Source: Azolla caroliniana
Taxonomy: Eukaryota > Plantae > Polypodiophyta
NCBI GenBank assembly: GCA_043228905.1
Contig: JBHGNT010000015.1
Coordinates: 14,384,001-14,448,000, forward strand
Length of the DNA: 64,000 bases
Direction of reading: 5' to 3'
Shown: positions 1 to 47,301 of the stretch, in pieces
Position numbering within the stretch: the stretch's first letter is position 1
Layout: each line of letters opens with the position of its first letter
The notes under the pieces: generated by a model
The model's input: the letters and a program-made list of their open reading frames with translations, nothing else
Databases searched by the model: none
What the model was told of the DNA's origin: nothing
Position numbers and translations under genes: made by a program

Positions 1-266
1 GGAAGATACGTGCGTCGATTGGGCCACAGAGTGAAGGTCTACGATGTCGAGATTGATCAACACTTATTCATGCAGGAGACGTCTTCCCATTTGGTAATTC
101 TAGGCGAACCCTACATCATGGTGGCCTGGATGGAAACCAAGGTGCTGGACAACGGCTCGGCCTACGCGTATGTAAAAAGTCTGGACGGTCGGCACTCCGT
201 CCAGTTCTTGACGGTCCGGCCAAACCACGAGCGGAATCGGGATTCTCTTGGCGACGAAGGCCGAGA

Positions 267-332
267 GGATTTTTGAAGAGGGCTATCAAGGCGTGGGGCT
301 GGGATAGTCCGGACAGCCAGAGGAAACCCCAC
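267..332 (+). promoter_or_regulatory. Putative -1 programmed ribosomal frameshift signal (G_GAU_UUU slippery site plus H-type pseudoknot)
   Basis: GGATTTT 267-273, TGA 274-276, stem1 GGGCTATC(280-287)/GATAGTCC(303-310), stem2 GTGGGG(293-298)/CCCCAC(327-332). The downstream ORF 273-644 is in the -1 frame. The same arrangement occurs at 7895-7958(-) and 29973-30038(+). Confidence 0.75.
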
Positions 333-1282
333 ACTTGTACCATAAGTACGAAATTTTGGCTCTCCGAACACAGAGATTGTACAATAGCCGGTATCGGTGG
401 ACCCATACGTCTGAAGCAAGTTGAAAGACATTTGAAGGAATGTGGAGCCTTGGACCCGAACGATTCGATTAGCAGCGCCATGGAGGCAGTCTCATTCGTC
501 GACACCCTGGGGGAAATCAAGAGGGTAGTCGAGGAGGATCTGAGCGAAGATCGGATCATACTGGTTAATTCGGTCGAGCTGTACGAAGTCATCGTCGACT
601 TTGGGAGGATGGTCAGGTTGGATCGGATGGCCAGAGTAAATTAGAAATACAAGAATATGGATTAGAAAGTGAGGCTATCGCGGGTCCCTTGCCCGACGAT
701 AGCTGGGAGCGGATGAAGGGGGTTGCGACAGACCTCAGTTTGTGAGATCTGGCTAACACAAGACATTGGTTTATCGACGAGAAGCTACGGGAGCTGAAGA
801 TCGGTGGGGGTGGCTTCCTACTGCCGACGGAGGAGGACTAGTTTCAGAGTATGCTTGGGAGGCATGGGAAAGCCTTCGCATTCTCGTTGGGGGAGATCGG
901 GTGCGTCGACCCGAAAATCGTGGAACCAATGGTGATCTTCACATTCCAGTACCGAGAGCTCACATCCCGAAGCTAATGGAGCTGCTCAAGCAGAAGGTCG
1001 AAATGGGTATCCTTGAACTGTCGAGTACCCCTTATTCGAATATGCTTTACGATGCCGAAGAAGAAGGACACACTGTGCTTCATTTAGGACCTGCAGTCGG
1101 TCAACAAAGTGGCCATTTGGAATGCCAAGATCGGTAGGGATCTGCCCAACGATTGATGAGTTCGCATAGGACTTCACTGGAAGGTCGATCCAATCGATCG
1201 GGGACCTATACTCAGGGTATGACCAATTCCAGTTGGTCGTGGAAAGTGGGGATATCACGATGATGTGAACCCCTCTTGGCGT

Positions 1283-2099
1283 AGTTTGGAAACAGGTCCC
1301 TCCGGATGCGAAGGGAGAAGAACAGTGCTGATGAGCAAACACGGCTGAGGCCGAAATCAGATGAGAAGTAACCGGCTACGGAGAGCCGGATAGCGCAGAC
1401 CCGGTGAGAACCGGATGAGGAGTACCCGGCTACGGAGAGCCGGATGGCGCAAACCCGGTGAGAACCGGATGAGGAGTACTCGGCTACGGAGAGCCGGATG
1501 GCGCAGACCCGGTGAGAACCGGATGAGGAGTACTCGGCTACGGAGAACCGGATGGTGCAGACCTAGTGAGAACCGGATGACGAGTGCCCGGCAAGATCCG
1601 GATGATGCAGGCCCGGTGAGGAGCGCTCTCCGGATGAAGAGACATATTCGTAAATATGTTTCTGAGAGTCCATCGTGGCTATAATTGTAAATAGCCGAAA
1701 AGTCATATTAGTATAAATATGACTTAGGGCAAACTTTTGCTGGGGGCTGTTATCATTCTTGTTGGTGCAAGACTAGAGAGCCAGTAACAGTGTACAGAGA
1801 GAGAGAGAGAGAGAGAGAGGAAGAGGTCGTTGCCTCTATTGTAACCTCCACCTGTGGCGAAGATCGTGAGCACGAGGTTGTTGCCTCTGTGAACTCACTG
1901 TTGTAATCATTGTGATATAGTGATAGTTTGGAGTCGGTGGACTTCCATGGTTTTTCCCTCTCAGGGTTTTTCCACGTTAAACATCCTGTGCACTCTTCTC
2001 TCTCACCTTTGTGTCGTGCGTTCATTACCTGTTTTCTGTGTTTGATTTTAGACTCGGTTGTGGCCGAGCGTTGTTCACCGGAGCATGTAGTTCCTATCA
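1283..2099 (+). repeat. 5' LTR of C1, with a 54-bp CCGG-rich tandem array (~1357-1620), TATA module and (GA)n
   Basis: Direct repeat of 6116-6926. Ends ...CCTATCA just before the PBS. Unit CCGGATGAGGAGTACCCGGCTACGGAGAGCCGGATGGCGCAGACCCGGTGAGAA has period 54. Confidence 0.93.
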
Positions 2100-2130
2100 A
2101 AGTGGTATCAGAGCGAGGTTACATAGAAAA

Positions 2131-5100
2131 ATGGATGATTAGTTGGGAGGCATGTTCAAGCTCACCGGCTCCAACTATTCGGTGTGGAAGTCGAAGATGA
2201 GGGACATGCTCGTGGTTAAAGATCTTTGGCTGCCGGTTCAGTTCGGGGACAAGAGACTGGACAAAATCAACGCCGCGATATGGGAGGTGATGCACATGAA
2301 GACAACGGCGTACATACGGTGCTTCATCGACATGAGTCTATACAACAACTTCAATGAAGAGAGCAAGGCTCATGAGCTCTGGGAGAAGATCGGCATTATG
2401 TTTCAAAACAAAAATGCTGTTAACCAGGTTTCGGTATTCCGGAAGCTAGTAAGACTCCGGTACCAAGATGGCTCTAGCATGGCGGAGCACATGAATGCCT
2501 TCCAGGGGCTGATACACCAGGCAACATCATTGGAAGTACGTCTCGCCGATGAGGTACTAGCACTACTCCTGCTCAGTTCCCTCCTGGATAGCTGGGAGAC
2601 GTTGGTTGTCACCTTGGGCAACGCCGGGCTGGAAGGGAAACGGTTATCCCTAGCAAGAGTGAAATCGAGCTTGCTAGATGAGGAGGCATGTCGGAAAGAT
2701 AAGGATACGAGCTGCGACTCCAAAGCGCTCCTTACCGAATCCGAACGCGGAAGACAAAGGAGCCGTAGTCCCCAGAACCGGGAAAAGTCGGGGACGCGGT
2801 CAAAGTCAAGGGGGAGGCCTACTTGCTTCTATTGCGGCAAGCCGGGACACTTTCAAAAGAACTGTCGGCATTTCCGAAAAGACAAGGAATCCGACGACAC
2901 CGATTTGTAGCGGACTTTGGACCGGAACGGTAAAGACAGGAGGGGAACGAACCGGAAGGGAACAACGGCAATCGCGGCAAGTGAAGAAGAGTTGATGCTC
3001 ATCACCGAGGAGAGTGAGATAAACCTTGCCGGCGACGAGCTGACCTGGGTGGTCGATTCCGGAGCGTCGTTCCACCTTACCCCGGACCGCAAATGCTTCT
3101 CATCCTACACAGTCGGTGATCACGGTTGTGTCCGGATGGGGAATGAAGGTACATGCCGAATTGTCGGCATAGGAGACGTGTGGTTGACAACACCAACCGG
3201 ATGCAAGTTGCTGCTAAAGGATGTCCGACACGTTTCGGAGGTTCGCCTGAACCTGATATCAACCGGTCGGCTAGATGATGAAGGCTACATGGGTAGCATC
3301 CAGAATGGTGTCATGAAGTTCAGCAAAGGAAGCTTGATTGTGGCTCGGGCCCGGAAGGTCAACACGTTGTACCTGATTTATGGCCGGTTATGTTCGGAGG
3401 AAGTGAACGTGGCATCTGACACTGCGTGGCAGAAGAGGCCGTGTCACATGAGCGAGAAGGGGATGAAGAGGCTTGGAGAAGTGCACTGATTGTCTGGCCA
3501 GTAAACAAAACCGGACCTCCTTCCGATCAAGGCCACCGATGAGACGTAATGCACCACTAGAGTTGGTGCATACTCATGTGTGTCAAGTGGACACGACGTC
3601 ACATGCCGGAGCGCAATACTTCGTGACGTTCATAGATGACCACAGCCGGAAACTGTGGGCCACACCGTTGAAGACGAAGGATCAGGTGTTATCCATTTTC
3701 AAAGAGCTCCACGCGAGAGTGGAAAGAGAAACCGGCCGGAAGCTAAAGGTGATTCGAGCTGATAACGGAAGTGAATACTGGGGGCAGTTTGAGGAGTACT
3801 GTCGCTCGAAGGGAATCCGACTCGAATTTACCGTGCCAAAGACGTCAGAACTAAATGGGCTGGCCGAGAGGATGAACCAGACCATAATGGAGAGGGTCCG
3901 GAGTATGCTGGCGCATGCAAAACTACCCAAGAAGTTTTGGGCTGAGGCACTGTCAACGACGACATATGTGATAAATAGATCACCCTCAGTACCCTTGCAC
4001 GGAGACATGCCATAGAGAGTCTGGACCGGTAAGGAAGTGTCCTATCGGCATCTGAAGGTATTCGGGTGTCTCACGTATGTGCATGTAGCTAAGGACCGGA
4101 GAGGAAAGTTAGATCCAAAGACCCGGCCATGCATATTCCTCGGTTACGGCGACGATGATTTCGGCTACCGAGTGTTGGACCTGGTCGACAAGAAGGTATT
4201 CCGGAGTCGAGATATTATCTTCATGGAGGACAAGACGCTCACCGACTAGGAGTCGGAGAAGAAGATAATGAACTCCGAGTCAACCGGTAAGGATCGATTC
4301 TACGATGAACAGACCCAACCGACAACAGACCGGTTAGCACTCGAGGAACCAGCCGGTTACGGTGAGGATACCGAACTGGCAGAAGAAAAAGTAAAGGAAG
4401 CTGAAATCGGAACCGGCCAAGACCCCGAATCGGATTCGGATGAAAAGCAAATGGAGGAGCCGGTCACCGAAGCCCAAGGACGGAGATATCCTCTTAGAGA
4501 GAGAAGGCCCCCCCGGAGATTTCCGGAGGCAGAGCATGTGCTGCTGACCAATGAGGGGGAGCTAGAAAGCTTCGAAGAAGCGAAGGATGACACCCACAAC
4601 CGCAAATGGTTAAGTGCCATGCAGGATGAGATGGATTCCCTGCATGAGAACCATACGTATGAATTGGTGGAGTTGCCGAAAGGAAAGCGGGCACTCCGAA
4701 ATAAGTGGGTGTATAAGTTGAAACCGGGAGATTCCGGCAACCCCCCAAGATACAAAGCCAGGATCGTGGTGAAGGGGTTCCAGCAGAAGAAGGGCGTGGA
4801 CTTCGACGAGATATTTGCCCCGGTAGTAAAGATGACCTCCATCCGGATGGTGCTGAGTATAGCGGCAAGCATGGACCTCGAGGTAGAACAGCTAGACGTG
4901 AAGACGACATTTCTTCACGGTGACCTTGAAGAGGAGATCTACATGCAGCAACCGGAAGGATTCGTGGAGAAAGGGAAGGAGCACCTGGTATGCCGGTTGA
5001 GGAAGAGCCTGTACGGACTGAAGCAGGCTCCCCGACAATGGTATCGGAAGTTCGACTCCTTCATGGCCGATCAAGGGTACCACAAGACGCAGGCCGATCA

Positions 5101-6105
5101 CTGCGTGTTTGTGAAGAAGTTTGAAGGAGGCAACTTCCTGATACTCCTTCTGTACGTGGATGACATGTTGATCGTCGGACGGGACCAAGTCAAAATACGG
5201 ATGCTGAAGAAGGCTCTCAATCAGACTTTCTCAATGAAAGACTTGGATCCGGCAAGACAGATGATGGGGATGCATATTATCCGGAACCGGTCAGTGAAGC
5301 AATTGTGGTTGTCAGAGGAGAAGTACGTGACAAGGGTGCTTCACCGGTTCAACATGTCAGATGCGAAACCGGTCGGATCGACACTTCCGGCAAACTGCAG
5401 GTTATCCGGTAAGCAAAGCCCGACGATGAAAGCAGAGAAGGCGGATATGATGAAGATTCCATATGCCTCTGCCGTCGAGAGCTTAATGTACACAATGGTG
5501 TGTACCCGACTGGATATAGGATACGCAGTCGGAGTGGTGAGCCGGTTCATGAGCAATCCCGACAAGGAGCACTGGAACGCGGTCAAATGGATACTCCGAT
5601 ACTTGAAGGGCACTTCGAATATGTGTCTCCGATTCGGCTCCGGAAAACCTCAACTTGACGGTTTTACCGATTCGGACATGTCGGCTGATGCGGATACCAG
5701 CCGGTCTACATCCGGGTATGTAATGACATATGCAGGGGGAGCTGTTTCGTGGCGTTGTCAACGACGGAGGTGGAGTACATGGCGGATGTGGAAGCCGGCA
5801 AGGAAATATTATGGATGAAGAACTTCATTGGAGAGCTCGGTATCCGGCAAGATGAATACCGGCTCTATTGCGACAATCAAAGTGCCATCCACCTTGCTAA
5901 GAATGCGGCCTACCATTCCCGGACGAAGCATATTCAGCGAAGGTATCACTGGATCCAGGAAAGAGTAGATAACCAGGAGTTCGCGCTGACGATGATCTAC
6001 ACGGTCGAGAACGGGTCAGATATGTTGACCAAAGTACTGATACCAGAGAGGCTGGATGCATGCCGGAAGCGAGTCGGACTAGTATGACATCCCATGACGG
6101 AGTGA
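2131..6105 (+). pseudogene. Disrupted gag-pol polyprotein of C1
   Basis: ORF pieces 2143-2910, 2917-3489, 3473-4015, 4037-4249, 4268-5818 and 5749-6087 are colinear with the intact 1358-aa polyprotein at 24304-28380, with in-frame stops and small deletions. Confidence 0.92.
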
Positions 6106-6115
6106 AGGGGGAGTT

Positions 6116-6926
6116 TGTTAGGAAACATGTCCCTCCGGATGGGAAGGGAGAAGAACAGTGTTGATTAGCAAACTCGGTCGAGGCCGAAACCGGATGAGGA
6201 GTACCCGGCTACGGAGAGCCGAATAGTGCAGACCCGGTGAGAACCGGATGAGGAGTACCCGGCTACGGAGAGCCGGATGGCGCAGACCCGGTGAGAACCG
6301 GATGAGGAGTACTCGGCTACGGAGAGTCGGATGGCGTAGACCCGGTGAGAACCGGATGAGGAGTACTTGGCTACGGAGAGCCGGATGGTGCAGACCCGGT
6401 GAGAACCGAATGACGAGTGCCCAGCAAGATCCGGATGATGCAGGCCCGGTGAGGAGCGCTCTCCGGATGAAGAGACATATTCATAAATATGTTTCTGAGA
6501 GTCCATCGTGGCTATAATTGTAAATAGCCGAAAAGTCATATTAGTATAAATATGACTTAGGGCAAACTTTTGCTGGGGGCTGTTATCATTCTTGTTGGTG
6601 CAAGACTAGAGAGCCAGTAACAGTGTACAGAGAGAGATAGAGAGGGGAAGAGGTTGTTGCCTCTATTGTAACCTCCACCTGTGGCGAAGATCGTGAGCAC
6701 GAGGTTGTTGCCTCCGTGAACTCACTGTTGTAATCATTGTGATATAGTGATAGTTTGGAGTCGGTGGACTTCCGTGGTTTTTCCCTCTTAGGGTTTTTCC
6801 ACGTTAAACATCCTGTGCACTCTTCTCTCTCACCTTTATGTCGTGCGTTCATTACCTGTTTTTTGTGTTTGATTTTAGACTCGGTTGTGGCCAAACGTTG
6901 TTCACTGGAGCGTGTAATTCCTATCA
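6116..6926 (+). repeat. 3' LTR of C1
   Basis: TGTTAGGAAAC...CCTATCA following the PPT; direct repeat of 1283-2099. Confidence 0.93.
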
Positions 6927-7200
6927 AAAAGTACTGAGTGAACAACAGTGAGGGTATGCCTTGGTTAAGCGTGAACTGTGGGGTATCGTTTCGGTGGTCA
7001 AGGCCAACAAAGACTACTTGATCGGGGCAGAGGTTATAATCGAGACGGACTACCTACCGATTCTCAGTATGGTTTTCAGATGCGCGACTCCAGACCTGGT
7101 GTTGCTCAGGTGGATCACATACATCAAGTCCCTAAATCCAGAGATACGGCACATCTCCGTAAAGGACAATGCCATGGCTAATATGCTTTCAAGAGCACGG

Positions 7201-10200
7201 TGTCGTGAAGATCCGTCACTACGCACGGATCGTGAGGCGGAACCACCAGGGTTCTAGACCGGAAGGACTCGAAGTTTGTACTAGCTTTAGTGAGAAAGGA
7301 ATTAAGATAGATTGAAAGAGAGAGAGATTCAGATAAGATAGAACACTTGACTTTAGATTGAAGAACAAGATTGATACATCAATTGGATAACAAATTTCTT
7401 ACCAACTCGTAGCTTCCCCTTCGTCTCTTTGGTGAAGACATGACCTATTGTCTTCGGATCTCTTAAGCTTGGATCGTTAGCGACTTCCTTCATCTTTTGC
7501 CAACTATCTTCCATTAACGGAACCGTAACTGGCTTAATCTTCCTATCCACCGTTTTATATTTTGTGTTGATGTCAGCTTCCTTCATCAAGATGTTTCGAT
7601 GATATTCATTGATGATAGCGTACATGTTGATGGAGCTAACCGAAATCATGCGATGATCGTGTAGGTAGCTGAAGTCCACGACATCCTCGATTTCGCCAAT
7701 TGTGTCGTTAAATGAGGCTTCTTCCATAATATGAGTCATGAACTCTTCTTTTTCTATTATGTTTTCTTCTTTCAGCATCTTCTCGAAGTCTTGTATCCGA
7801 CACATGTCCTTCTTGTCGGGTAGTACTAGTTTATATGCGCCACTAGGTGTGACACATGTTGCTTCTCCTCGCAATCCACGCGCTCTACTCTCTTGTGGGG
7901 ACTTGTGATCGCTCGGACTATTTGTGCCCCATGTTTCAATAGCCTGCTCTAAAAATCTAAGGATTCGCCTCCAAGACTATCTCAATTTCTTTCATGATTA
8001 GCTCGCACCGTTAGGAATTGAACAGATCTTTGATTGTCAAGACTCTTGATTCGTGCGAAGGTTGCTCCATTATCGAACACCTTGGTCTCCATCCAGGATG
8101 ATGTGATATACGGTTGTCCTAGGATGACAGGATGCGACGCCAATTCTTGCATGAAGAAGTGTTGATCCATCTCCACATCCCCGACCGTGACTTTAACATA
8201 GGGACAAGCTCCGTACAAGTCCTTCGTAGACTTTGTTGCCACTCGAATCTTCCATCCGTGGTTTGTATTGATTGGCCATCTTCCTTTTTTGTAGAACTCG
8301 GTTGACATGAGGTTGATCTCCGAGCCATGGTCGATCAAGGCTACCACGGTCTCTTTCTTCTCCCCGATCTTCACTGGTGTCTCCGTTGTCGCTTGTGCCC
8401 AATGAGGTCGAGCATAGTGGCTGTCAACCATATCTTCATCGACTTCGTCCCTTGTCATTGTTATGGCATTTGTCTTTGCTTTTTGTGGCTTCTCTTCTTC
8501 CTCGTCCAATTGTTGTCGTTTTCTCTTTACAAGGTCCACGATCGTGTCATGGAACTCCTTCTTCATAATGCCGAGTAATTCCCTCAAGGACAAAGTGACA
8601 TGGCTATCAAGAACGCGTTCCTCGAGAATCTTCTTCAGGTCTGTCGTCTACTCTATGTCCGACCTTAGCTTATAGCTAGGCATAGTTCTTGTCTTCCGAG
8701 CGGGGTCTTCAACACCAACCTTCACAGGTCGAACCGTTTCTTTGACTCGTTTACTTGACTCTTCTTTCCAGCTTGAGTCTCCATCCTCCGTTTGTAAAGC
8801 TCGAGTTGCTTCTACATCTTCTTTCTTCTTCGTGCTCCTTGTTTCATGTCTTTTTGATGGGCTATCTTGCCCTTCCATTCTTTTTCTCTTTTCATCCACG
8901 AACACCTCGTGGTTGTCACACATCATTTCCACGAGTATGGTGTTGTCATCTACCGGATCCGACCATCCGGTTATACTTTGTACACTTCGATCCGCAAGCT
9001 CTACCTCGTTCGAAGTGACTTTTCCCTTCTTCTCATACTCAAAAACGGTAGACCAAAACTTTGTTCCCGTTCTAGCAGCTTCATTTTTATATTTTCTGAC
9101 TCTAATTCCAGCCGTTGCAGCATAGTGCATCGCATCCACATGAGTCGCCTCAACATCTTCCATAGATTTCTTCATTCCCCCTCTTCCGAAATTCACCCGC
9201 AGGGGTCTTTGAGTTTCAGTCGAGCAGATCATGTTGTCATCCATGTATACAATATTTTGTCGGATCGCCTCTCGAAGGCTCGCGCAATCCCTTCTCATGT
9301 GGTCCATGCTATCGCACCACACGCATCTAAAGGGTTCTTTTCCTTTGGGGCCCCGACGATTCATGTTGGCTAGCGTGACCATCTCGAACTTCTTTGCTAG
9401 CTCTTCGATGATGTCGTTATCAATCTTCTTTTCTTCCGGGCTGCTTTGTTTGGGCGGCTCAGCTACTTTCGGTTGCCTTGTTTTCTCCACGACAGTCGAT
9501 CCCGCCAAGTCGGTGTCATCAACCCACTGACGACGCTTGTCGAGCCTAGTGCATGCTTGCTTCACCGCAACCCAGTTCGCCACAAGCCCGTTCGCTTGGG
9601 TATCATCTTCGAGGAGAGTACCCAGTTCTCGTCTATCCTTCATATCCACAGCCTTTAGGAAGTACAAAGTTTTGTCCTCCTCAAGTAACATTTGGTCAAT
9701 GGCGAGGAAACGACAAAACATTTGGTCGAACTCGTCGTACACCCTCGAAGCACGCATGATCCTCTTATTCTTCTTTTCTATCCACTTCATCAAGGCATGT
9801 CGAGTCATTCTTGACAAATCTTCCGTCGCGAACTTCGCTAGTATCACTTTCTCGAACTCCGACCACGTTGTCTTCCCTTCTTGAAGCTCGATGACGCGCC
9901 TTTGGGTGTTGTTGGAAACTTGTGATTTGACGTGCTTTAGACACGTCCCTCTGATTCATCTCCCTTTTGTATGCATCAAGGAACTTTGTAATGTTCCTTC
10001 CATCAAATTGACCCTCGAGCTCAACGACACGGTCAACAGCCTTCTCCACGCTTGCATCGTTGTCTTGAGATCTCATCATTTGTTCGACGATCAGCATCAT
10101 CCTTTCGAACTCTCCCACTTGGTTGCTTGAGGATGTCATCTCCAAGTATCGGTTGATCCTTGATTTGATCATTCTTGCCGCCTCTTTCATGTCAGGTTCA

Positions 10201-11357
10201 CCATTTAATTATGTCGTGAAAATCCGTCACTACGCACAGATCGTGAGGCGGAACCACCGGGGTTCTGGACGGGAAGGACTCGAAGTTTGCACTAGCTTTA
10301 ACGAGAAAGGAATTAAGATAGATTGAAAGAGAGAGAGATTGACATAAGATAGAACACTTGACTTTAGATTGAAGAACAACATTGATACATCAATTGGATA
10401 ACGAATTTCTTACTTTTAATTTCTTGATTAATACATCGCCCCCCCCTTTTGTCTTTTTCAACCCCTGTTTTATAGACACCCCCATGCATATGATGCATGT
10501 GAGGCTACAAGACATGCATATAATGCATGTGATGCATGTGATGCATGTTTGCCATTTGGCGCTCATGCATTACATTTGATGCATGATAACCATGTCACTC
10601 AATCAAGCTCTAATATGAGAATTTACATGTAAAAGTATAATGATAGAAAAAACATTTTTAAGCAAATGACTTAGCTTAGTGGTAAGTCTATTGCCTCCTA
10701 TCTTGGAGGTGCAAGGTTCAAGCCTCCTATCTTGGAGGTACAAATTTCTAATAGGTTTTTTAGTCTAGATGATTTTGTTCATTTCACACTAAAATCGTCG
10801 TGATTAACCTATCCGAGCGATCCGTCTATCCGGTCGGGTTCCGACCTGGTGATTTGGTCTATCCGGTCAGGTTCCGGTCCTGGTCCCGGTTCGATCGCTG
10901 TCACCGTCCGGTTCTGGATCCGGTTCGATCACTGTCACCGTCCGGTTCTGGATCCGGTTCCGGTTTCGTCGCCGTCCGGTCACCCAAAACCATTACGAGC
11001 AGTTAAGCCACAGTTTAGCCCAAGAACAATCTGTGCTCCACTCATAGACAAAAATTTATAAGTTTTGGCTCTGGTTATATACTGTGGGATCCTGATTTGT
11101 CCTATCTATGTGGGATATCTCACAATTTTGTTTTTCTCTTTTTCTTCTCAAACTTCACACTCACATAACTTGACACTAAGTTGTACATTTCACATGTAGT
11201 AAAATGCATTCGGAAGCTCTTGAAGACATCCATCTTTTCGTACCAAGATATAAAATAATATCTACATTATTATTGTTTCATATTGTGTGTGAAGAACCAC
11301 ACTCGATTTTGTACGTTCCATGCAATTTTCACACCGTTCCCGAAAATCTTCATGACA
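7201..11357 (-). mobile_element. Internally deleted Ty3/gypsy element G4, nested in the RNase H region of G1
   Basis: Termini TGTCGTGAA/TTCATGACA with 4-bp TSD ACGG (7197-7200, 11358-11361); the host frame SRAR|FENEDD is restored when the insert is removed. 5' LTR 10212-11357. 3' LTR truncated to 7201-~7402, matching 10212-10412. Gag with CVWCDSMDHMRRDC knuckle, protease LIDHGSEINLM, pol start TKYKTVDRKIKPV; RT to integrase deleted. Confidence 0.9.
10186..10203 (-). promoter_or_regulatory. Primer-binding site complementary to the tRNA-Trp 3' end
   Basis: Minus strand TGGTGAACCTGACATGAA versus the complement of plant tRNA-Trp(CCA) 3' end as I recall it, TGGTGAACCCGACGTGAA. Both mismatches are CpG-deamination type. 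Lies 8 nt inside the LTR end. Confidence 0.72.
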
Positions 11358-11640
11358 ACGGTTCGAGAACGAGGACGACATGGTGTCGGAGAACGAAGAA
11401 GTCAGTGTGGATTTCTTCGAATCGGCCCAAATGTCGGTGAACAATCAAAGCACTCTGTCCTTGAATGAGTTCTGCGAGGACGATTACGACGGGGAGTAGC
11501 TTCAAATAAGGCGGTTCCTAAGCACGATGGCGCCGGATGTGGACGAAAGAGGAAACGGGTTGGATTAGGAAGAAGGCTTACCGGCACTTCCTACAGGACG
11601 GGAAGGTCGGGCGACATTCAAAGTAGCGAACCAGCACACC

Positions 11641-12583
11641 ACTCCGGACGGAGACAAAGGAGGAGGAACAGTCGATGCTCGTGTCGGAGTTCCACGAGAG
11701 TCCTTGGTCAGGACATCGGGGAACGTGGACCATGTTCGAGAAGATAAAGGAGAAGTTCTAGTGGCCTAGAATGTATGGGGATGTGTACTCCGGACGGTGA
11801 CAAAGGAGGAGGAACAGTCGATGCTCGTGTTAGAGTTCCACGAGAGTCCTTGGTCTGGACATCGGGGAACGTGGGCCATGTTCGAGAAGATAAAGGAGGA
11901 GTTCTAGTGGCCCAGAATGTACGGGAATGTGTACTAGTTCGTGATGACATGCAAAAGCTGCCAGATGCATTCCAGAGTCTAGCTCCACAATGAGCTACAC
12001 CTGACCTACCCGCCAATCGTTCACTTTAAGTGGATGGTTGATTTAGTGACGATGTTGATGGGGGTAGGGAAACTGCGATATCTAGTGCTCGCACAAGAGG
12101 ACCTGACGAATCAAGTGGAGGGTCGAGCCCTAACGAACCAAACGATTGTGGCGGTATGCCGGTTCATGATCGAGGATGTGATTTGTCGGTACAGAAGGGG
12201 GAGGAATAGTCCATGCTCATGTCGGAGTTCCACGAGAGTCCTTGGTCTAGACATCGGGGAATGTGGGCCATGTTCGAGAAGATAAAGGAGAAGTTCTAGT
12301 GGCCCAGAATGTACGGGGATGTGTACTAGTTCGTGACAACATGCGAAAGCTGCCAGATGCACTCCAAAGTCCAGCACCACAACGAGCTACATCTAACCTA
12401 CCCGCCAAAGTTCACTTTAAGTGGATGGTCGATTTAGTGACGATGCTCATGGGGGTAGGGCAACTGCGATATCTAGTGCTCGCACAAGAGGACCTGACGA
12501 ATCAGGTGGACGGTCGAGCCCTAACGAACAAAACAATTGTGGCGGTATGTCGGTTCTTGATTGAGGATGTGATTTGTCGGTAC
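11641..12583 (+). repeat. Nested tandem duplications (~146 bp and ~390 bp) within the G1 integrase region
   Basis: ACTCCGGACGG...GATGTGT repeats at 11641 and 11787; block ~11808-12192 repeats at ~12200-12583. Confidence 0.85.
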
Positions 12584-13456
12584 GGGTGTGTCGGGAAGAT
12601 AATAGCCGATCGAGGGGAGTTGGATGCGCACGAAGCTGAGGAGTTGTTCAACCTGCTAGGGGTCAAGCTCTCCCTCATGACCGCGTACAACCCGAAAGCG
12701 AATAGGAAGGTCGAGCGCGGGCACAGGCCAATTGTGAAAGCATTGGTACGAGCATGTGACGGATGGGTCGGCAATTGACCGAGACTACTTCCTTATGCTT
12801 TATGGGCCGACCAGAGTACGCACAGTTCGGTGACTGGATACATGCCGGCGGAACTTATGTTCGAACAGAAGTTGATCATGCCAGTGGAACAGACAATCCC
12901 TTCATGGATGACGGTCGAATGGATGGAGGATATGAGCCGAGAAGAGTTGTTGGCGGCGCAGATTCGATAACTCGAGCGAAGACCGGAGGATGTAGAGCGC
13001 GCTAAGAAAAAGCTAGGGGCAGCGCGAGAAAGGAACAAAAGGCGGTTCGACCAGACGCACCGACTCCAACCAAAGAAAATCGAGGAAGGCAACCAGGTGC
13101 TAGTTTATGACAGCAACCTCGACAATCAACACAGATCAACAAGGAAGTTTGTGCGGCGGTGGTTCGGGCCGTACGTGATAACAAGTACCAACAATAATGC
13201 GACATACCACCTTGCGGAGCTTGATGGGACGAGGATAGCGGTATAGATTGTGGGGAAGAGGATCAAGGCCTTCAAGAGACGGTATGAAGCGGATCCGGAT
13301 CCGGAGATCGAAGACGGAAGTGCCAGTGAGGGCGACGAGTTGGATGAAGACCGGACCAGCGCCTGATCGGGGGAGGACGAGTGAAGAGTAAGCCAAAATC
13401 CCCACCGCTTCACTACTTGGCACATGCCGGAGGATGTGCAGTTTGTTGGGGGTGGA

Positions 13457-21300: not shown

Positions 21301-23590
21301 ATTGTCATCAGCACCGAATCCCAAAACATGTTGGACAACTTCGCATGTGCCAACATACTTCGTACTCTCTCCATGATGGTCTGGTTCATTCTCTTGGCCA
21401 AAACGTTCAGCTTTGGCATCTTTGGCACAGTGTACTCAAGCCGGATTCCCTTCGACTGGTAGTACTCCTCAAACTCCCCTCGGTATTCGGGACCGTTGTC
21501 CGCTCGAACTGCTTTCAGCTTCCAGTTGTTTTCTCTTTCTACTCTCACATGAAGCTCCTTCGTCTTCAGCGTGGAGACCCATAGCTTCTGATTGTGGTCA
21601 TCTATGAAAGTCACGAAGTACTACGACCCGGCATGTGACTTCATGTCCACAGAGCATAGCCTTTCGTCTCATCGGTGGTCTCAACCGGAAAGAGGTTCTA
21701 TTTTGCTTGCCAGCTAGGAAAGCGCTGCACTTCTCAAGTTGCACGTTCTTCACCTCCGGAATGAGGTTATCTTTAGCAAATCTCCACATCCCCTTCTGGC
21801 TCATGTGACACAACCTCTTGTGTCATAGCTCACCAGAAACATTTACTTCCTCACTTACTTCCTCTCGGCATATCCGAGCATGCATTAGGTATAGCATGTT
21901 TGTCTTTTGGGCTCGAGCCACAATCATGCTTCCTCTGCGGAACCTCGTTGTGCCGTTCCGTATGCTACCTGTGTAGCCTTCATCATCCAATCGACCAATT
22001 GATATTAGATTCAATCTGACCTCCGAAACGTGTCGCACCTCTCTCAACAGTAGTTTGCGCCTGGTTGATCTTGTCAAACACACATCTCCTATGCCGAAAA
22101 TTCGGCATGCTCCTTCATTCCCCATCCTTACACAACCGTGATCTTTGGCTCTGTATCATAAGAAGCACTTCCGGTAGGGGGTCAGATGGAACGACGCTCC
22201 AGAGTCGACCACCCACGTCATTTTGTCATTGACAAGGTGTAGCTCACTCTCCTTCATGATGAGCAGTAGTTCCTCTTCACTTGTCGTGATTGCCAATGTT
22301 CCTCTTCTTTCCGAAATCTTCTTCGGTTCGGAGTCGTCAACTCCCCCTTTTGCTTTCTGGAAGTGTCTGCAATTCTTTTGGAAGTGCCCCGACTTTCCGC
22401 TATAGAAGCAGGTGACCTCCCCCTCGACTTCGACCTTGTTCCTGACTTTTCCCAGTTCTTGGGACTTCTGTTCCGGCCTCTTCCCCAGTTTGTGTCGCCT
22501 TCCATTGTTGTGGAGGATTCCGTCCATAGGGAGAAAAGGAGTCGGATGTCCATGAACGAGGGTGTGCGCGGATGCACACTAACTAGTCTTTATGTACAAA
22601 CATATGCAAATAATTTTGTGTTATTCAATCTCTCTTCCCTTCCGGCTCCTTGGTCCGAGACCCCGGTGGTGCTACCCCGTTTCAACACATACTCGTGGAA
22701 AACCGCGGCATCTTTGGTGAAAAGGGGCGGCAAAGGAGTCTGAAGATGAGAAACGATCCGCACCGGCTCTCGACGCTGGACCAGACTGTGCTCGATACGA
22801 GCAAGGTCCTATTGTTCACCAACCTAGTCGATCCACTTGACAGGGAGAAGGTGGGTCTCCTCTTGGAGACAGATGAGAGGCTCACGACCGACTAGGCCAT
22901 AGTCAAAAGAGTTTGTAGCCATTTCAAAAAGTGGCTAGATTGGAACAACACGGGGTCGTCGTCGACCGGGCTAGCTGTCAGGAGGAAGTCGAAAGAACCG
23001 ATTTCAACTCAGTTGGAAGATACAAGGAGGTGGCTCGAGTAAGGCGCGGTTCCGACCGACGTGGTAAAGGGGTCATCCCGGGGCGCAACTCTTGAGGAAT
23101 TAACGAAGTTGGTACGAGACCTTCAGATTGCCCAAGCTTAGAGGAAAGGCAACAACCAATCACGAGCTCGGTGCCTGCTGGTAGACCATGTGGTGCGATG
23201 TGATCGGCCAAATACGGAGAGACTGCGTTGACTTCATCGACGCGCTCACAAACAACAATGATAGTGTACTTATGAAACAGTCTGGTACACACGTGCGAGA
23301 CCCGGAAACCCCTCAAGATGAACATCAGCCGAAGGGGAATGAAAAGATTAATGGAGGAAGTCGCGGCCTAGAACGTCGAGGCTATTCACTACTAGGCCTT
23401 GGCCAGGAATCCGGGTAGGGGGAGAGAAGGGCACCGGCCCCGAAACGAACGTCGGATTATGGCCACTAGTACTTGAGGGCTTATCCGGAGTGAGGCTAAG
23501 AAAGGAGGAGACGGACCGCACGGAGAGACAGGTCCAAGAGGGAACCGGATGGAACGATCCAGTAGAAGTGAAAACTAGCTTCGTGGAAGC

Positions 23591-26500
23591 TGTTATACGC
23601 AGTGCTCGGCCGCAACCGAGAAATAGGATTAACTTTCAGAAAACAGGAATTACAAAAATGCACGAAGAACAACAGAGAGAAGAGCACACAGGATGTTTAC
23701 GTGGAAAACCCTAAATGGGAAAAAACCACGGGAGTCCTCTAACTCCAACTATCACTATACACAGAGATGTACAATGGTGAGGCTACAAGGCAACAACCTT
23801 GAGCTCGCTGTCCTCGCCACAGGCGGCGGTATTACACAGAGGCGTCGACCTCTTCCTTCCTCTCTCTCTCTCTCACTCTCGCTCGGCTGCTCTCACTTCG
23901 CTCCCTCTTCGTGGAAAACAGAAAATGAGCAACAACCGCATAAAACTGTTTGCCCTAAGTCATATTTATACACATATGACTTTTGGGCTATTTACAAATA
24001 TAGCCTCAAGGGCTCTTGGCAAACATATTCACAAATATGTCCCCGCATCCGGATCTCTCTCCGGGTACATTCGTCATCCGGCTCCGTAACCGGGGTCTTC
24101 AGCATCCGGCTCCGTAACCGGGGTCTTCATCATCCGGCTCCGTAACCGGGGTCTTCATCATCCGGCTCCGTATCCGGGTACTCTTTATCCGGCTTCATGC
24201 CGGGTACTCTTCATCATCCGGTTCCGTAACCGCAACCGGGCTTGCCGTCATTCATCTCCGGACATCCCATCCGGAGGGACCGAAATCCCAACAAACTCCC
24301 CCTTCACTTCGGCATGGGATGTCTCTCCAATCCGACTCTCTTCCGGCACGCTCCCAGCTTGTCGGGTGTGAGCACTTTGGTCAGCATATCCGACCCGTTC
24401 TCGTCCGTGTGGACCTTCGTCAGCACGAACTCCTTGTCTTCTATCCTTTCCCGGATCCAGTGATATCTTCGCTGGATGTGCTTCGTCCGGGAGTGATAGG
24501 CCGCGTTCTTCGCAAGGTGGATGGCACTCTGACTGTCGCAGTAGAGTCGGTACTCCTCCTGCTGGATACCGAGCTCTCTAATGAAGTCCTTCATCCATAT
24601 TATTTCTTTGCCGGCTTCAACAGCCGCCATGTACTCCGCCTCCGTGGTTGACAACGCAACCGTCTTCTGCAGCCTCGACTGCCACGAAACAGCTCCCCCT
24701 GCATACGTCATCACATACCCTGATGTGGACCGGCTGGTATCTGCATCAGCCGACATATCCGAATCGGTGAAACCGTCGAGTTCGGGTTTACCGGAGCCGA
24801 ATCGGAGGCACACATTCGATGTGCCCTTCAGGTATCGGAGTATCCACTTGACCGCGTTCCAATGCTCTTTGCCGGGATTGCTCATGTACCGGCTCACCAC
24901 TCCGACTGCATATCCGATGTCCGGTCTCGTACATACCATGGCGTACATCAAGCTCCCGACGGCTGAGGCATATGGTACTTTCATCATATCCTCCTTTTCA
25001 GCCTTTGTCTTGGGGCTTTGCTTGCTGGACAGCTTGCAGTTTGCCGGGAGGGTCGATCCGACCGGTCTTGCCTCCGACATGTTGAACCGGTGAAGCACCT
25101 TCGTCACGTACTTCTCCTGTGACAGCCACAACTGCTTCTTCTTCCGGTCCCGGATGATGTGCATCCCTAATATTTGCCTCGCCGGACCCAGGTCCTTCAT
25201 TGAGAAGGTTCGGTGAAGCGCTTTCTTCAGCGTCCGTATCTTGACCTGGTCCCGTCCGACGATCAACATGTCGTCCACGTATAGGAGGAGTATTAGAGAG
25301 TCTCCTCCTTCGAACTTCTTCACAAACACGCAGTGATCGGACTGCGTTTTGTGGTACCCTTCGTCGGTCATGAAGGAGTCGAACTTCCGGTACCATTGCC
25401 GGGGAGCCTGCTTCAATCCGTACAGGCTTTTCTTCAATCGGCATACCAGGTGCTCCTTCCCTTTCTTCTCGAATCCTTCCGGTTGCTGCATGTAGATTTC
25501 TTCTTCGAGGTCACCGTGAAGGAATGCTGTCTTCACGTCCATCTGTTCTACCTCGAGGTCCATGCTTGCCGCTATGCTCAGCACCGTCCGGATGGAGGTC
25601 ATCTTCACTACCGGGGCAAATATCTCGTCGAAGTCGACGCCCTTCTTTTGCTGGAACCCCTTCACCACGATCCTGGCTTTGTATCTCGTGGGGTTTCCGG
25701 CATCTCCCGGTTTCAGCTTGAACACCCACTTGTTTCGAAGTGCCCGCTTTCCTTTCGGCAACTCCACAAGTTCATATGTGTGGTTCTCATGCAGGGAATC
25801 CATCTCGTCCTGCATGGCACTCAACCACCTGCGGCTCTGGGTGTCATGCTTTGCTTCTTCAAAGCTCTCCGGCTCCCCCTCGTCGGTTAGCAGCACGTGC
25901 TCTGGTTCCGGAAATCTCCGGGGGGCTCTCCTCTCTCTTAGAGGATATCTCCGTTCGGGAGCTTCGGTAACCGGTTCTTCCGATTCTTCTTCTTCATCCG
26001 AATCCATTTCGGGATCGGGGCCGGTTCCGGTATCATTTTCATCTTCTTCGGCCGGTTCTGTTTCTTCACCGTCTTCGGCCGGATCCTCGAGTGTTAACCG
26101 GTCCCTTGCCGGTCGGGACTGCTCCTCGTAGAGTTGATCCTCACCGGTCGACTTGGAGCTCCTTACCTTCTTGTCCGACTCCCAGTCGGCGAGTGTCTTG
26201 TCCTCCATGAAGATGATGTCTCGACTCCTGAATATCTTCTTGTCGACCGGGTCCCATACTCGGTAGCCGAACTCGTCGTCGCCGTAACCGAGGAATATGC
26301 ATGGCCGGGTCTTAGGATCTAGCTTTCCTCTCCGGTCCTTTGCCACATGCACGTATGCGAGACACCCGAACACCTTCAGATGCCGGTAGGACACTTCCTT
26401 ACCGGTCCACACTCTCTGCGGCGTGTCTCCGTCCAAAGGAACTGAGGGTGATCTGTTTATCACATATGTCGCCGTCGACATTGCCTCAGCCCAAAACCCC

Positions 26501-29142
26501 TTGGGTAATTTCGCATGCGCCAGCATACTCCGGACCCGCTCCATTATGGTCCGGTTCATCCTCTCGGCCAGCCCGTTCAGTTCCGGCGTCTTCGGCACAG
26601 TAAACTCGAGCCGGATTCCCTTCGAGCGACAGTACTCCTGGAACTGCCCCCGGTATTCCCCTCCGTTATCCGCTCGTATCGCTTTCAGCTTCTTGCCGGA
26701 TTCCCTTTCCACTCTCGCGTGGAGTTCTTTGAAGACGCACAACACTTGGTCCTTTGTCTTCAACGGTGCCGTCCACAGCTTCCGGCTGTGATCATCAATG
26801 AATGTTACGAAGTACTGGGCTCCGCCATGTGACTTCGTTTCTACCTGACACACATCGGTGTGCACCAACTCCAATGGTGCGCTACGTCTCGTCGGTGGCC
26901 TTGAGTGGAAGGAGGTCCGGTTTTGCTTACCGGCCAGGCAGTCGGTGCACTTCTCCAGGTGCACATGCTTCACTGGAATGAGGTTGTCTTCTGCAAGCCT
27001 CTTCATCCCCTTCTCACTCATGTGGCACAGTCTTTTGTGCCACAGCTCACCGGCAGTGTCGGCTGCCACATTCAGCTCTTCCAGACATAGCCGGGAATTC
27101 ATCAGGTACAGTGTGTTGACCTTCCGGGCCCGAGCCACTATCAGGCTCCCCTTGCTGAACTTCATGACACCGTTCCGGATGCTACCCGTGTAGCCTTCAT
27201 CATCTAGCCTCCCGGCCGAGATCAGGTTCAATCGGACCTCCGGAACGTGTCGCACATCCTTCAGCAGCATCTTGCATCCGGTTGATGTCATCAGCCACAC
27301 GTCTCCTATGCCGGCTATCCGGCACGTACCTTCATTTCCCATCCGGACACAGCCATGCTCACCGGCTGTGTAGGATGAGAAGTATCTTCTCTCCGGGGTC
27401 AGGTGGAACGATGCTCCGGAATCGACCACCCAGGTCGTCTCATCGCCGGCAACGTTTAGCTCACCTTCTTCGGTGATGAGCATGATTTCTTCCTCACTTG
27501 CCGCGAGTGCCGTTGTTCCTTTCCGGTCCTGCCCTCGCCGATCCGAACCTCTCCGGTCCGTGGCTCCCCGGTATGCACCGTTTCTCTCCGGTGACTTCTT
27601 CGAGTCGGTGTCGTCGGCTCCGTTGTCTTTTCGGTAATGCCGACAATTCTTTCGGAAGTGCCCCGGCTTCCCACAGTGGAAGCATGTTGGCCTTCCTCTT
27701 GACTGCGACCGGGTCCCCGACTTCTCCCGTCTTTGCGGACTCCGGTTCCACTGTCTTCCCCGTTCCGATTCGGTAAGCAGCGCCTTCGAGTCGGAGACCG
27801 GTTCTTTATCTCTCCGACGCGCTTCTTCGTTCAAAATACTTGTCTTTACCGTTTGTAGAGACAAGTTATCTTCGGTGCAGGAGGTGCTGAGAGTCACCAC
27901 CAAGTTCTCCCAGCTGTCCGGCAATGTACACATCAGGATGATGGCTTGCATTGCATCCTCCAACGGGAACTTGATCGCCGCAAGCTGGTTCACGAATCCC
28001 ATGAACGTGCTTACGTGTTCCACCATACTCTCGCCGTCCCGGTACTTGAGGTTCACTATCTTCCTCATCAGGGAGGTCCGGTTCAACGCATTCTTCCTCT
28101 CATAGAGGCCCGACAGCTTCTTCCACATCTCATAGGCGTTCGTATCGTTCGCCACATGTTGCAGGACACTTACATCGACATATTGCCGGATCGTCGCTAC
28201 GGCTTTCCGGTTCAGGAGCTTCCACTCCGACTCAAGTACCCCTTTCGGTATTTCCGACCTGTCAATCGGTTCGTACAGGTCCCGAACAATCAGAAGATCC
28301 TCCATCTTGATCTTCCAGTCGGCGTAATTCTGTGCATTCAGCACCATCATCATCGGCTGCCCGCTGCCGCCGCCTTCCATTTTCTGTGTTACCGTCGCTC
28401 TGATACCAATTTGTTATACGCAGTGCTCGGCCACAACCGAGAAATAGGATTAACTTTCAGAAAACAGGAATTACAAAAATGCACGAAGAACAACAGAGAG
28501 AAGAGCACACAGGATGTTTACGTGGAAAACCCTAAATGGGAAAAAACCACGGGAGTCCTCTAACTCCAACTATCACTATACACAGAGATGTACAATGGTG
28601 AGGCTACAAGGCAACAACCTTGAGCTCGCTGTCCTCGCCACAGGCGGCGGTATTACACAGAGGCGTCGACCTCTTCCTTCCTCTCTCTCTCTCTCACTCT
28701 CGCTCGGCTGCTCTCACTTCGCTCCCTCTTCGTGGAAAACAGAAAATGAGCAACAACCGCATAAAACTGTTTGCCCTAAGTCATATTTATACACATATGA
28801 CTTTTGGGCTATTTACAAATATAGCCTCAAGGGCTCTTGGCAAACATATTCACAAATATGTCCCCGCATCCGGATCTCTCTCCGGGTACATTCGTCATCC
28901 GGCTCCGTAACCGGGGTCTTCAGCATCCGGCTCCGTAACCGGGGTCTTCATCATCCGGCTCCGTAACCGGGGTCTTCATCATCCGGCTCCGTAACCGGGG
29001 TCTTCATCATCCGGCTCCGTATCCGGGTACTCTTTATCCGGCTTCATGCCGGGTACTCTTCATCATCCGGTTCCGTAACCGCAACCGGGCTTGCCGTCAT
29101 TCATCTCCGGACATCCCATCCGGAGGGACCGAAATCCCAACA
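23591..29142 (-). mobile_element. Intact, young Ty1/copia LTR retrotransposon C2
   Basis: LTRs 28412-29142 (5') and 23591-24293 (3') are nearly identical; the 5' LTR has one extra 28-bp unit. Perfect TSD GAAGC (23586-23590, 29143-29147). tRNA-iMet PBS 28397-28408. PPT adjacent to 24293. Single uninterrupted ORF. Confidence 0.97.
24304..28380 (-). CDS. Copia gag-pol polyprotein (Gag, zinc knuckle, protease, GAG-pre-integrase, integrase, RT, RNase H), 1358 aa
   Basis: CFHCGKPGHFRKNC; WVVDSGASFH; LWHKRLCHMS...CTDC; VHTD...ADNGGEY...NGLAERMNRT; MDVKTAFLHG; SLYGLKQAPRQW; LLYVDDML; FTDSD...STTEAEY...CDSQSAI. Confidence 0.97.
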   Translation of the reverse strand: MEGGGSGQPMMMVLNAQNYADWKIKMEDLLIVRDLYEPIDRSEIPKGVLESEWKLLNRKAVATIRQYVDVSVLQHVANDTNAYEMWKKLSGLYERKNALNRTSLMRKIVNLKYRDGESMVEHVSTFMGFVNQLAAIKFPLEDAMQAIILMCTLPDSWENLVVTLSTSCTEDNLSLQTVKTSILNEEARRRDKEPVSDSKALLTESERGRQWNRSPQRREKSGTRSQSRGRPTCFHCGKPGHFRKNCRHYRKDNGADDTDSKKSPERNGAYRGATDRRGSDRRGQDRKGTTALAASEEEIMLITEEGELNVAGDETTWVVDSGASFHLTPERRYFSSYTAGEHGCVRMGNEGTCRIAGIGDVWLMTSTGCKMLLKDVRHVPEVRLNLISAGRLDDEGYTGSIRNGVMKFSKGSLIVARARKVNTLYLMNSRLCLEELNVAADTAGELWHKRLCHMSEKGMKRLAEDNLIPVKHVHLEKCTDCLAGKQNRTSFHSRPPTRRSAPLELVHTDVCQVETKSHGGAQYFVTFIDDHSRKLWTAPLKTKDQVLCVFKELHARVERESGKKLKAIRADNGGEYRGQFQEYCRSKGIRLEFTVPKTPELNGLAERMNRTIMERVRSMLAHAKLPKGFWAEAMSTATYVINRSPSVPLDGDTPQRVWTGKEVSYRHLKVFGCLAYVHVAKDRRGKLDPKTRPCIFLGYGDDEFGYRVWDPVDKKIFRSRDIIFMEDKTLADWESDKKVRSSKSTGEDQLYEEQSRPARDRLTLEDPAEDGEETEPAEEDENDTGTGPDPEMDSDEEEESEEPVTEAPERRYPLRERRAPRRFPEPEHVLLTDEGEPESFEEAKHDTQSRRWLSAMQDEMDSLHENHTYELVELPKGKRALRNKWVFKLKPGDAGNPTRYKARIVVKGFQQKKGVDFDEIFAPVVKMTSIRTVLSIAASMDLEVEQMDVKTAFLHGDLEEEIYMQQPEGFEKKGKEHLVCRLKKSLYGLKQAPRQWYRKFDSFMTDEGYHKTQSDHCVFVKKFEGGDSLILLLYVDDMLIVGRDQVKIRTLKKALHRTFSMKDLGPARQILGMHIIRDRKKKQLWLSQEKYVTKVLHRFNMSEARPVGSTLPANCKLSSKQSPKTKAEKEDMMKVPYASAVGSLMYAMVCTRPDIGYAVGVVSRYMSNPGKEHWNAVKWILRYLKGTSNVCLRFGSGKPELDGFTDSDMSADADTSRSTSGYVMTYAGGAVSWQSRLQKTVALSTTEAEYMAAVEAGKEIIWMKDFIRELGIQQEEYRLYCDSQSAIHLAKNAAYHSRTKHIQRRYHWIRERIEDKEFVLTKVHTDENGSDMLTKVLTPDKLGACRKRVGLERHPMPK

Positions 29143-30075
29143 GAAGCCACGTGCAAGAACTACGAAGTTCTAGTGGAAGATAAGCGGGTCAAAAAAGCCG
29201 GAGGGGCCGGGGCGGTTCGGAAAAAAAAGACAGAGGCCCTACCGGCTCACAAGAAAAGGCGAAGTTCCCGCTCAGAGATAGAGAGAGCAACGGACCTACA
29301 AAAGGTCTTGGAGGAATGGATTCTCGATAGCCGGGTGGAACTCATTCTGAGGGAGGTGCTAGGGATAGCAAAGAAAGAGTTCCACGATTCCATCGTTGAG
29401 CTCGTGAGGAGGAAGCGACTCTCATCGGAGCCGGAGAACGAGAGGTCGGTCCAAGTGAAGGTTGCGCACATCGACGAAGTGGCCATAGAGGAAGAATTTT
29501 TGGACAACGACTACATGAAGCCACACTAGGCAAGGGCGAAAACGGAGACCCCAGTCCGGAACGGGGATGTGAAAGAACCGGTGGTGGCTTTGATCGACCA
29601 TGGATTAGAGATAAATCTAATGTCGATGGAGTTCTATAAGAAGGGAAAGTGGCTGATCAACACGAAGCACTGCTGGAAGATACGCACGGTGACCCATCCC
29701 ACATAAGAGCTTCATGCGGCATGCCCAAACGTCTGGGTGAAAGTCGGTGACGTCAAGACCGGCCAACATTTCTTCATGCAGGAGTTGTCATCGCATCTTG
29801 TCATACTCGGCGAGCCCTACATCACGGCGGCCCAGATGGAAACAAAGGTGTTGGACAACGGTTCAGCCTATGTGCGGGTAAAAAGCCAGGACAGTCGGCA
29901 CTTCGTCCAATTCTTAACAGTTCGGCCGAACCATGAGTAGAACCGGAACTCCCTCGGCACAGAGTGCCAAGAGGATTTTTAGAGAGGGCTAGCAAGCCGT
30001 GGTGTTGCGATAGTCCAGACATCTGGAAAAATCCCCACACCTATACAATAGGTAGGAAATTTTGACCGTCTGTTA

Positions 30076-35375: not shown

Positions 35376-35439
35376 TGTTAATGGAGGTTGTACCATAGTC
35401 GGCATCCGTGGCCGAAAAAAGACACAGGTCGAAGGGCAC

Positions 35440-35815
35440 CCTTACCGGAGGATAGATGGGAGAGGATGAGAGGGGTCGTAATCGACCGGAGTTTACGAGA
35501 TCCGGCAGGCATAGGGCACCGGTTCACTAACGAGACACTACGGAAGTTGAAGATCGGTGGGGGTGGCTTCCTACTGCCGGTGGAGGAGGACCGGTTCTTG
35601 AGAATGCTCGAAAGGCACGAGAAAGCCTTACCGGAGGATAGATGGGAGAGGATGAGAGGGGTCGTAATCGACCGGAGTTTACGAGATCCGGCAGGCATAG
35701 GGCACCGGTTCACTGACGAGACACTACGGAAGTTGAAGATCGGTGGGGGTGGCTTCCTACTGCCGGTGGAGGAGGACCGGTTCTTGAGAATGCTCGAAAG
35801 GCACGAGAAAGCCTT
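35440..35815 (+). repeat. 186-bp in-frame tandem duplication in G3 pol
   Basis: LPEDRWERM...RHEKA occurs twice (35440, 35626) with one visible SNP and CCTT microhomology at the junction. Confidence 0.93.

Positions 35816-47267: not shown

Positions 47268-47301
<34 letters not shown>

Follow-up and report, generated by a model that had tools for sequence, protein, structure and literature searches.

Predicted programmed -1 frameshifting between gag-protease and pol in a plant Ty3/gypsy retrotransposon lineage

Three LTR-retrotransposon copies (G1, G3 and G4) in the window, i.e. the whole 64,000-nucleotide stretch of Azolla caroliniana DNA analysed here, end their gag-protease frame at Asp-Phe-stop and continue into pol in the -1 frame, raising the question of how a polymerase encoded in this way would be expressed. 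It had been proposed from the letters of this stretch that Gag-PR is made by default and Pol via a programmed -1 frameshift of the ribosome (-1 PRF), a proposal that is supported by the data described below: pol lies in the -1 frame in 22/24 relatives and in frame 0 in 0/24, heptamer and spacer are conserved, and the stems covary. On this sequence evidence we put at about 85% the probability that pol is made by -1 PRF at the heptamer G_GAU_UUY, with a predicted H-type pseudoknot 6 nt downstream acting as stimulator.

Cassettes and elements in the window

The first 36 kb of the window consist of nested LTR retrotransposons stacked together, in which the cassettes and the elements that carry them are placed as follows.

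1..276, + strand: 3' end of the G1 gag-protease frame, closing E-D-F-stop (69% amino acid identity to the G4 protease end)
267-273, + strand: G1 slippery heptamer GGATTTT, G_GAU_UUU in the gag register, the same site as in 20/20 intact -1 representatives
274-276, + strand: G1 stop codon TGA
274..279, + strand: G1 6-nt spacer, containing the gag-protease stop codon
280-287 with 303-310, + strand: G1 predicted stem 1, with a 15-nt loop
293-298 (loop GTGGGG) with 327-332 (CCCCAC), + strand: G1 predicted stem 2, closing the H-type pseudoknot
267..13321, + strand: G1 decayed pol (leader, RT, RH, INT), in pieces 255-1286, 6928-7236 and 11359-13321
7201..11357, - strand: G4, an internally deleted element with the 4-bp duplication CCGT on both flanks
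About 11357-10212, - strand: G4 5' LTR, followed by the PBS (from about 10203), gag, protease and cassette
3' part of G4, - strand: about 190 codons of pol, then the final 200 nt of the 3' LTR
7895..7958, - strand: G4 cassette, with AGATTTT (A_GAU_UUU) at 7958-7952, then TAG
7945-7938 with 7922-7915, - strand: G4 stem 1, with a mismatch at the stem base
7900-7896, - strand: downstream arm of the 5-bp G4 stem 2 (CCCCAC at 7900-7895)
22748..36086, + strand: G3, a decayed element with two copia insertions (23591-29142 and 30076-35375)
29973..30038, + strand: G3 cassette, with GGATTTT (G_GAU_UUU) at 29973-29979, then TAG
29986-29993 with 30009-30016, + strand: G3 stem 1, with one mismatch
30033-30038, + strand: CCCCAC of the decayed G3 stem 2, whose loop reads GTGGTG

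Re-reading of the window placed the three cassettes exactly where the original prediction had them, at 267-332 (+) in G1, 7958-7895 (-) in G4 and 29973-30038 (+) in G3. Its description of three independent elements did not hold, as they are paralogues of one lineage (66-77% nucleotide identity overall, 71-77% between G1 and G3, and 66-69% from G4 to G1 and G3), and G4 sits within the pol of G1. The stems that it quoted are exact in G1 alone, G3 and G4 deviating from them, and the D-F-stop end that it ascribed to the three copies is present in each, although the frames of G3 and G4 are already stopped upstream of it (at 29938-29940 and 7984-7982, respectively). A degenerate pattern made from the three copies gave three matches in the window versus none in 100 shuffles, a result that speaks for homology of the three cassettes only, and not for function.

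The window copies G1, G3 and G4 are dead. Both a nested block that contains copia (1284-6928) and G4 interrupt the pol of G1, whose frame closes after about 126 codons; the pol of G4 is missing after 7403, and that of G3 is broken at 30076 by a copia insertion (30076-35375) with a 5-bp duplication, TGTTA. Evidence for function was drawn from intact relatives, of which those nearest to the G4 cassette are L046, L047 and L057 (82-86% nucleotide identity).

Several neighbouring features were recorded alongside. The copia element at 24304-28413 (-), within the 23591-29142 insertion in the gag of G3, retains an intact 1369-codon polyprotein frame and has LTRs that are 96% alike, and a decayed member of another gypsy lineage, with a Ty3-capsid gag and an integrase only 24% alike to that of the cassette-bearing family, lies at 15722-19072 (+). 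Exons of a host gene for an NCL-type sodium/calcium exchanger with EF hands occur at 39996-47051 (-), the closest named proteins to one of these exons coming from the fern Ceratopteris (75-77%). A short-unit tandem repeat at 47114-47589 adjoins the first listed NCL exon, and a similar repeat is found at L046:8465-8889.

Reading frame and cassette in intact relatives

Relatives were fetched by alignment to the protease end, with no use of the motif, and the best 80 of 168 were taken (L001-L080); their contig names belong to one accession series, and the number of hosts behind them may be small. Long downstream ORFs, defined as those of at least 550 codons, were present at 24/80 loci, 55 having none (short contig or decay) and one having no stop. 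Relative to gag-protease, pol lay in the -1 frame at 22 of these 24 loci and in the +1/-2 frame at two; intact copies with both in one frame, which the original prediction had named as refuting, numbered 0/24. The 22 loci form 13 clusters at 92% identity. In L031 and L032 the -1 frame opens only 3 codons upstream of the gag stop, which confines the point of entry to the heptamer. Typical ORFs in the relatives comprise about 720-770 codons for gag-protease and about 1100-1180 for pol.

Among the 92 homologues that extend to the C-terminal region, 49 end in DF and three in NF, and over both protein searches (103 ends, a count that omits 7 more proteins ending soon after the anchor) there were 59 DF or NF ends, 17 with DF plus 1-7 residues, one VFx and 26 others. 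A distant DUF4100-type singleton, P0196 (an ENA contig of 8.8 kb), runs from protease into RT in a single frame, and could be either a genuine relative with one ORF or a copy that has decayed.

Three other sources of the layout were considered and rejected: assembly error in the U-run, since the layout recurs in 13 clusters and in the deep sub-lineage L201; stop read-through, since no pol ORF of the 24 lies in frame 0; and polymerase slippage, since U-runs of 3-6 are short. L201 (53% amino acid identity) has an identical heptamer, 6-nt spacer and -1 pol; it was the one relative among 47 matches in genome contigs, and lies in an assembly labelled cyanobacterial, on a contig that is probably a contaminant. 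None of the 18 pattern matches in viral contigs was related.

The cassette was aligned over 22 of 46 clusters, picked by ORF length, together with the three window copies (25 rows). G_GAU_UUY, a 6-nt spacer and a stem with a 15-nt loop were present in 20/20 intact -1 representatives. Eight residues are found before Asp (S, Q, E, A, L, P, G and T), and the codon concerned ends in G in all 20 (log10 probability -9.2, a value that assumes independence and is thus overstated), whilst GAT is used at the site in 20/20 and TTT in 18/20, versus 0.49 and 0.38 over the rest of these ORFs. When all 46 clusters were scanned automatically, 25 had G_GAU_UUY at 6 nt, five a variant heptamer, three an indel and two the -2 type, the stem being mislocated in 11. 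Synonymous change over pol codons 1-14 is 0-0.36, versus 0.25-0.80 in the flanks. A protein-level cause of the conservation was rejected, because the amino acids encoded across the stems differ whereas pairing is kept, and synonymous change is low. The canonical components of -1 PRF, i.e. heptamer, spacer, (predicted) downstream structure and overlapping -1 ORF, are all found here, and both G_GA heptamers and spacers of 5-9 nt are on record for -1 PRF (PMC5009743).

Of the stem 1 cells, 89.8% are paired, versus 24-43% in slid controls, and the loop is 15 nt in 25/25 rows. The covariation score of stem 1 was reached by 0/500 shuffles, although kinship alone can beat such shuffles; both sides change in 4/9 pairs only, a figure reached by 26/500 shuffles. 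For stem 2, pairing of each loop with its own downstream arm exceeded cross-pairing between rows (p=1.5e-4, n=25; p=1e-4, n=19; p=5.9e-3, n=12), and changes in both arms are seen in GGGAC/GTCCC, GAGGG/CCCTC and CAAGG/CCTTG. Nested minimum-energy folds lack stem 1 in 4/8 cassettes (z-scores -0.3 to -2.9). The stems of L201 differ in sequence from those of other cassettes, and both helices are possible when read by eye; no Rfam family was matched in L071, L046, L201 or L021. Covariation and frame conservation across copies had been proposed as a check; in the relatives analysed, both stems covary and pol is in the -1 frame in 22/24. The predicted arrangement of heptamer, 6-nt spacer and pseudoknot stands as regards nucleotide-level conservation and covariation, but single-sequence folds lend it little.

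The unassigned sequence of about 120 aa that had been noted before the RT-proximal motif (YK..K..P) was recovered as 121-133 codons in 13/14 intact loci, the length in L063 being left uncounted because the motif regex missed it. This pol leader (~125 codons) is under purifying selection, dN/dS over codons 24-125 being 0.17-0.43 in 9/10 pairs, with one pair saturated.

If pol is indeed expressed by -1 PRF, most ribosomes would stop at the gag-protease stop and yield Gag-PR (about 720-770 codons), whilst a minority would slip in tandem, GAU to GGA and UUY to UUU, and continue to a Gag-PR-leader-RT-RH-INT product. The ratio of capsid to enzymes would then follow from the slip rate, as it does in gag-pro/pol of avian retroviruses.

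Frameshifting might be real and yet be stimulated by a plain stem-loop (stem 1) or by the adjacent stop codon, with stem 2 incidental. The register of stem 2 varies, its partner lying 15-18 nt past stem 1 in 23/25 rows and the best helix of G3 and L042 being off the usual register; it beats shuffles in only 9/25 single sequences; and a stop just past G_GAU_UUU matters in pea enation mosaic virus RNA 2 (PMC5009743). However, the preference for self- over cross-pairing is significant at three redundancy levels and both arms change together, and L072 and L080 keep the heptamer with the stop further downstream, so we regard an incidental stem 2 as unlikely.

Routes that dispense with frameshifting fare less well. 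Splicing, as found in Ogre, could take the gag-protease stop out of the RNA, with the U-run and AG serving as a 3' splice site and the structure as a regulator; TTTTTAG stands at the stop in many copies, the Ogre intron lies between GAG-PROT and RT (PMC6317226), and moss, liverwort and fern gene models (Physcomitrium, Riccia, Adiantum) join the two ORFs. Yet the junctions of these models disagree in position, the acceptor AG has no fixed place (L012 and L031 lack an AG after the U-run, and the stops are TAA, TAG or TGA), and the ORFs overlap without a spacer, with purifying selection on the leader from codon 24. A 191-nt contig from a run guessed to be RNA, which may be DNA and is weak evidence, spans the junction gap-free, and of four runs whose RNA nature is a guess, one gave 11 pieces on each of L057 and L021 (thin coverage), with a single go-back joint, located in RT, and none of splice type. 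Splicing is, on balance, very improbable. Reinitiation, or a shorter RNA, at an internal AUG would make the overlap incidental, and an AUG does precede the RT-proximal motif in every pol ORF; its position is not conserved, the first falling anywhere from codon 5 to codon 110, codons 24-75 have dN/dS of 0.07-0.67 even where the first AUG of a pair comes later, and the constraint on G_GAU_UUY would be left unexplained. We consider this route scarcely credible, and -1 PRF remains by far the preferred account.

A branch with pol in the +1/-2 frame

The two loci with pol in the +1/-2 frame, from which this branch is known at the DNA level, carry the following cassettes.

L070:2836-2900: -2-type cassette, AG_GUU_UUU with a 5-nt spacer
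L071:2498-2560: -2-type cassette, AG_GUU_UUU with a 5-nt spacer

L070 and L071 form a clade (support 100/100; divergence in RT-RH 0.24 changes per column) placed among -1 lineages in a tree whose deepest forks are not firmly resolved. In both, gag-protease ends at Q-V-F-x-stop on AG_GUU_UUU, the predicted stem 1 is extendable to 10-12 pairs and stem 2 has 8 pairs; the intact pol frames in +1/-2 comprise 1150 and 1097 codons, and the -1 frames close after 0 and 4 codons. There is one stop in mid-gag of L070. Near the junction dN/dS is 0.05 and 0.07-0.17, both ORFs being under purifying selection. The QVFD end is shared by 12/16 members of one protein cluster (L070 included) from ENA and JGI, with two KVFD ends in addition, and this recurrence across sources indicates that this end is not an assembly slip.

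Given recoding, a net -2 shift in L070 and L071, direct or in two -1 steps, appears likely. The same frame could result if ribosomes slipped by +1 on the U-run: the six U of L071 permit UUU to UUU re-pairing, and antizyme +1 frameshifting uses a pseudoknot (PMC3458567). Against this, L070 has five U and then G, where tRNA-Phe would land on UUG; the site matches RG_GUU_UUU, at which arteriviruses make their -2/-1 shift (PMC11818727, PMC4937337); and, compared with that of the -1 relatives, the spacer is short by 1 nt, a direction favouring -2, since -2 shifting is optimal at spacers 1-2 nt shorter than for -1 (PMC3458567). A +1 slip is therefore rather doubtful in our estimation.

For the -2 shift, the switch in this branch would have involved G_GAU_UUU becoming G_GUU_UUU, the loss of one spacer base and lengthening of stem 1. 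We lean, with some reserve, towards the broader reading that one lineage carries -1 and -2 forms of a single pseudoknot-driven signal, L070 and L071 making their polymerase by -2 frameshifting. If true, this would amount to a naturally occurring -2 shift driven by RNA structure, and would put the mRNA-tension model to an evolutionary test; the two versions are set apart by one base in the heptamer, one in the spacer and the length of the stem, making frameshift direction testable on natural sequences.

Lineage and comparison with known systems

The elements bearing the cassette belong to one lineage of Ty3/gypsy LTR retrotransposons that occurs in ferns, mosses and liverworts and is likely the Phygy of REXdb. 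The protease end of G4 as query found 306 relatives, the named ones among the 120 listed being from Physcomitrium and Adiantum, and a second protein search added Riccia. Homologues in Physcomitrium patens have 48-52% amino acid identity. The ESM Atlas groups a moss homologue with DUF4100/aspartyl-protease clusters (streptophytes, basidiomycetes). RT, RNase H and integrase were identified in 8/8 pol ORFs scanned, in which there was no chromo family at E 0.001 and no second RNase H family was seen. The LTR-to-LTR period of 6.5-6.9 kb (four loci) together with an LTR of about 1.1 kb gives an element of about 7.6-8 kb, and the target duplication NCGN is read from CCGT on either side of G4 (one insertion). 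Long ORFs lie beside intact elements at L021:7395-10688 (+) and, antisense and of 933 codons, in L032, and may lie outside the element; that of L021 has internal repeats and no Pfam match.

A single PBS sequence, exact or with one change, was present in 17/19 loci examined, and may be that for tRNA-Trp. A tRNA gene matching it was sought in viral contigs, where only chance matches were found, and in 60 loci, where a tRNA scan returned one tRNA-Met and none matching the PBS. The PBS is complementary to miR894, a widely reported small RNA with a CCA end (PMC5846777, table), exactly so in most loci and with two changes in G4 (window about 10203-10186, -), which suggests that miR894 may be a fragment from the 3' end of a tRNA, with these elements as possible targets.

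REXdb describes Phygy as non-chromovirus Ty3/gypsy with a 4-bp NCGN duplication, a PBS for tRNA-Trp, a length of 7.7-10 kb, no extra ORF and no aRH (PMC6317226), and calls it species-specific with ORF organisation 'ND' (PMC6317226, Additional file 5). The 4-bp NCGN duplication fits this lineage, as do the lack of a chromodomain and the homologues in Physcomitrium patens; the PBS and the length of about 7.6-8 kb may fit it too. Unlike the listed entry, GAG-PROT here overlaps RT-RH-INT, and relatives also occur in Riccia and Adiantum. An ORF layout listed as 'not determined' for a plant LTR lineage is thereby filled, and the overlap explains the inconsistent joins made by gene predictors in these elements.

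The original prediction had set this layout against plant LTR elements that are usually single-ORF or spliced, a generalisation that needs qualifying, as plant elements with overlapping frames are already on the REXdb list (PMC6317226). Tcn1, Selgy and some SIRE have a GAG:o:PROT overlap, i.e. before PROT, and Ogre and Retand are split after PROT without overlap, the Ogre spacer being spliced and Retand having a single stop (PMC6317226). All five resemble the present elements as plant LTR elements with two ORFs; the novelty relative to the known plant overlaps lies in frames that overlap after PROT and carry a -1 cassette. The REXdb lineage table has no lineage with GAG-PROT overlapping RT as the prevailing form, though its per-element notes may mention frameshifts (PMC6317226), and the plant cases that a 2016 recoding review draws from a 2003 survey are only +1-frame (PMC5009743). 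No description of the cassette signal was found in a search of the open literature, nor in passages of PMC12786077 and PMC7466625. What emerges is a predicted pseudoknot-type -1 signal in a plant retrotransposon.

Avian sarcoma-leukosis virus likewise encodes its protease with Gag and reaches RT-RH-INT via a -1 shift, but in a different host and with a different heptamer and structure, and the fern and moss element has a 125-codon leader and no env ORF was seen in it. The -1 sites of umbraviruses and dianthoviruses are G_GAU_UUU, and they employ a bulged stem-loop that base-pairs to a loop some 4 kb distant (PMC5009743); the heptamer is identical, plant ribosomes are used and a stop follows closely, whereas a local H-type pseudoknot, rather than distant-loop pairing, is predicted in the retrotransposons. 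Arterivirus nsp2TF depends on nsp1beta/PCBP acting on a C-rich motif, and shows no evident RNA structure (PMC4937337). AG_GUU_UUU is shared by L070 and L071, and their early -1 closure resembles nsp2N; in contrast, they have a predicted pseudoknot 5 nt downstream, and their putative -2 product is the essential polymerase. Read directly, neither contains a C-rich motif 10-11 nt downstream, the stem starting at 5 nt. As a predicted signal, that of L070 and L071 works like arterivirus -2/-1 PRF without being a member of that system.
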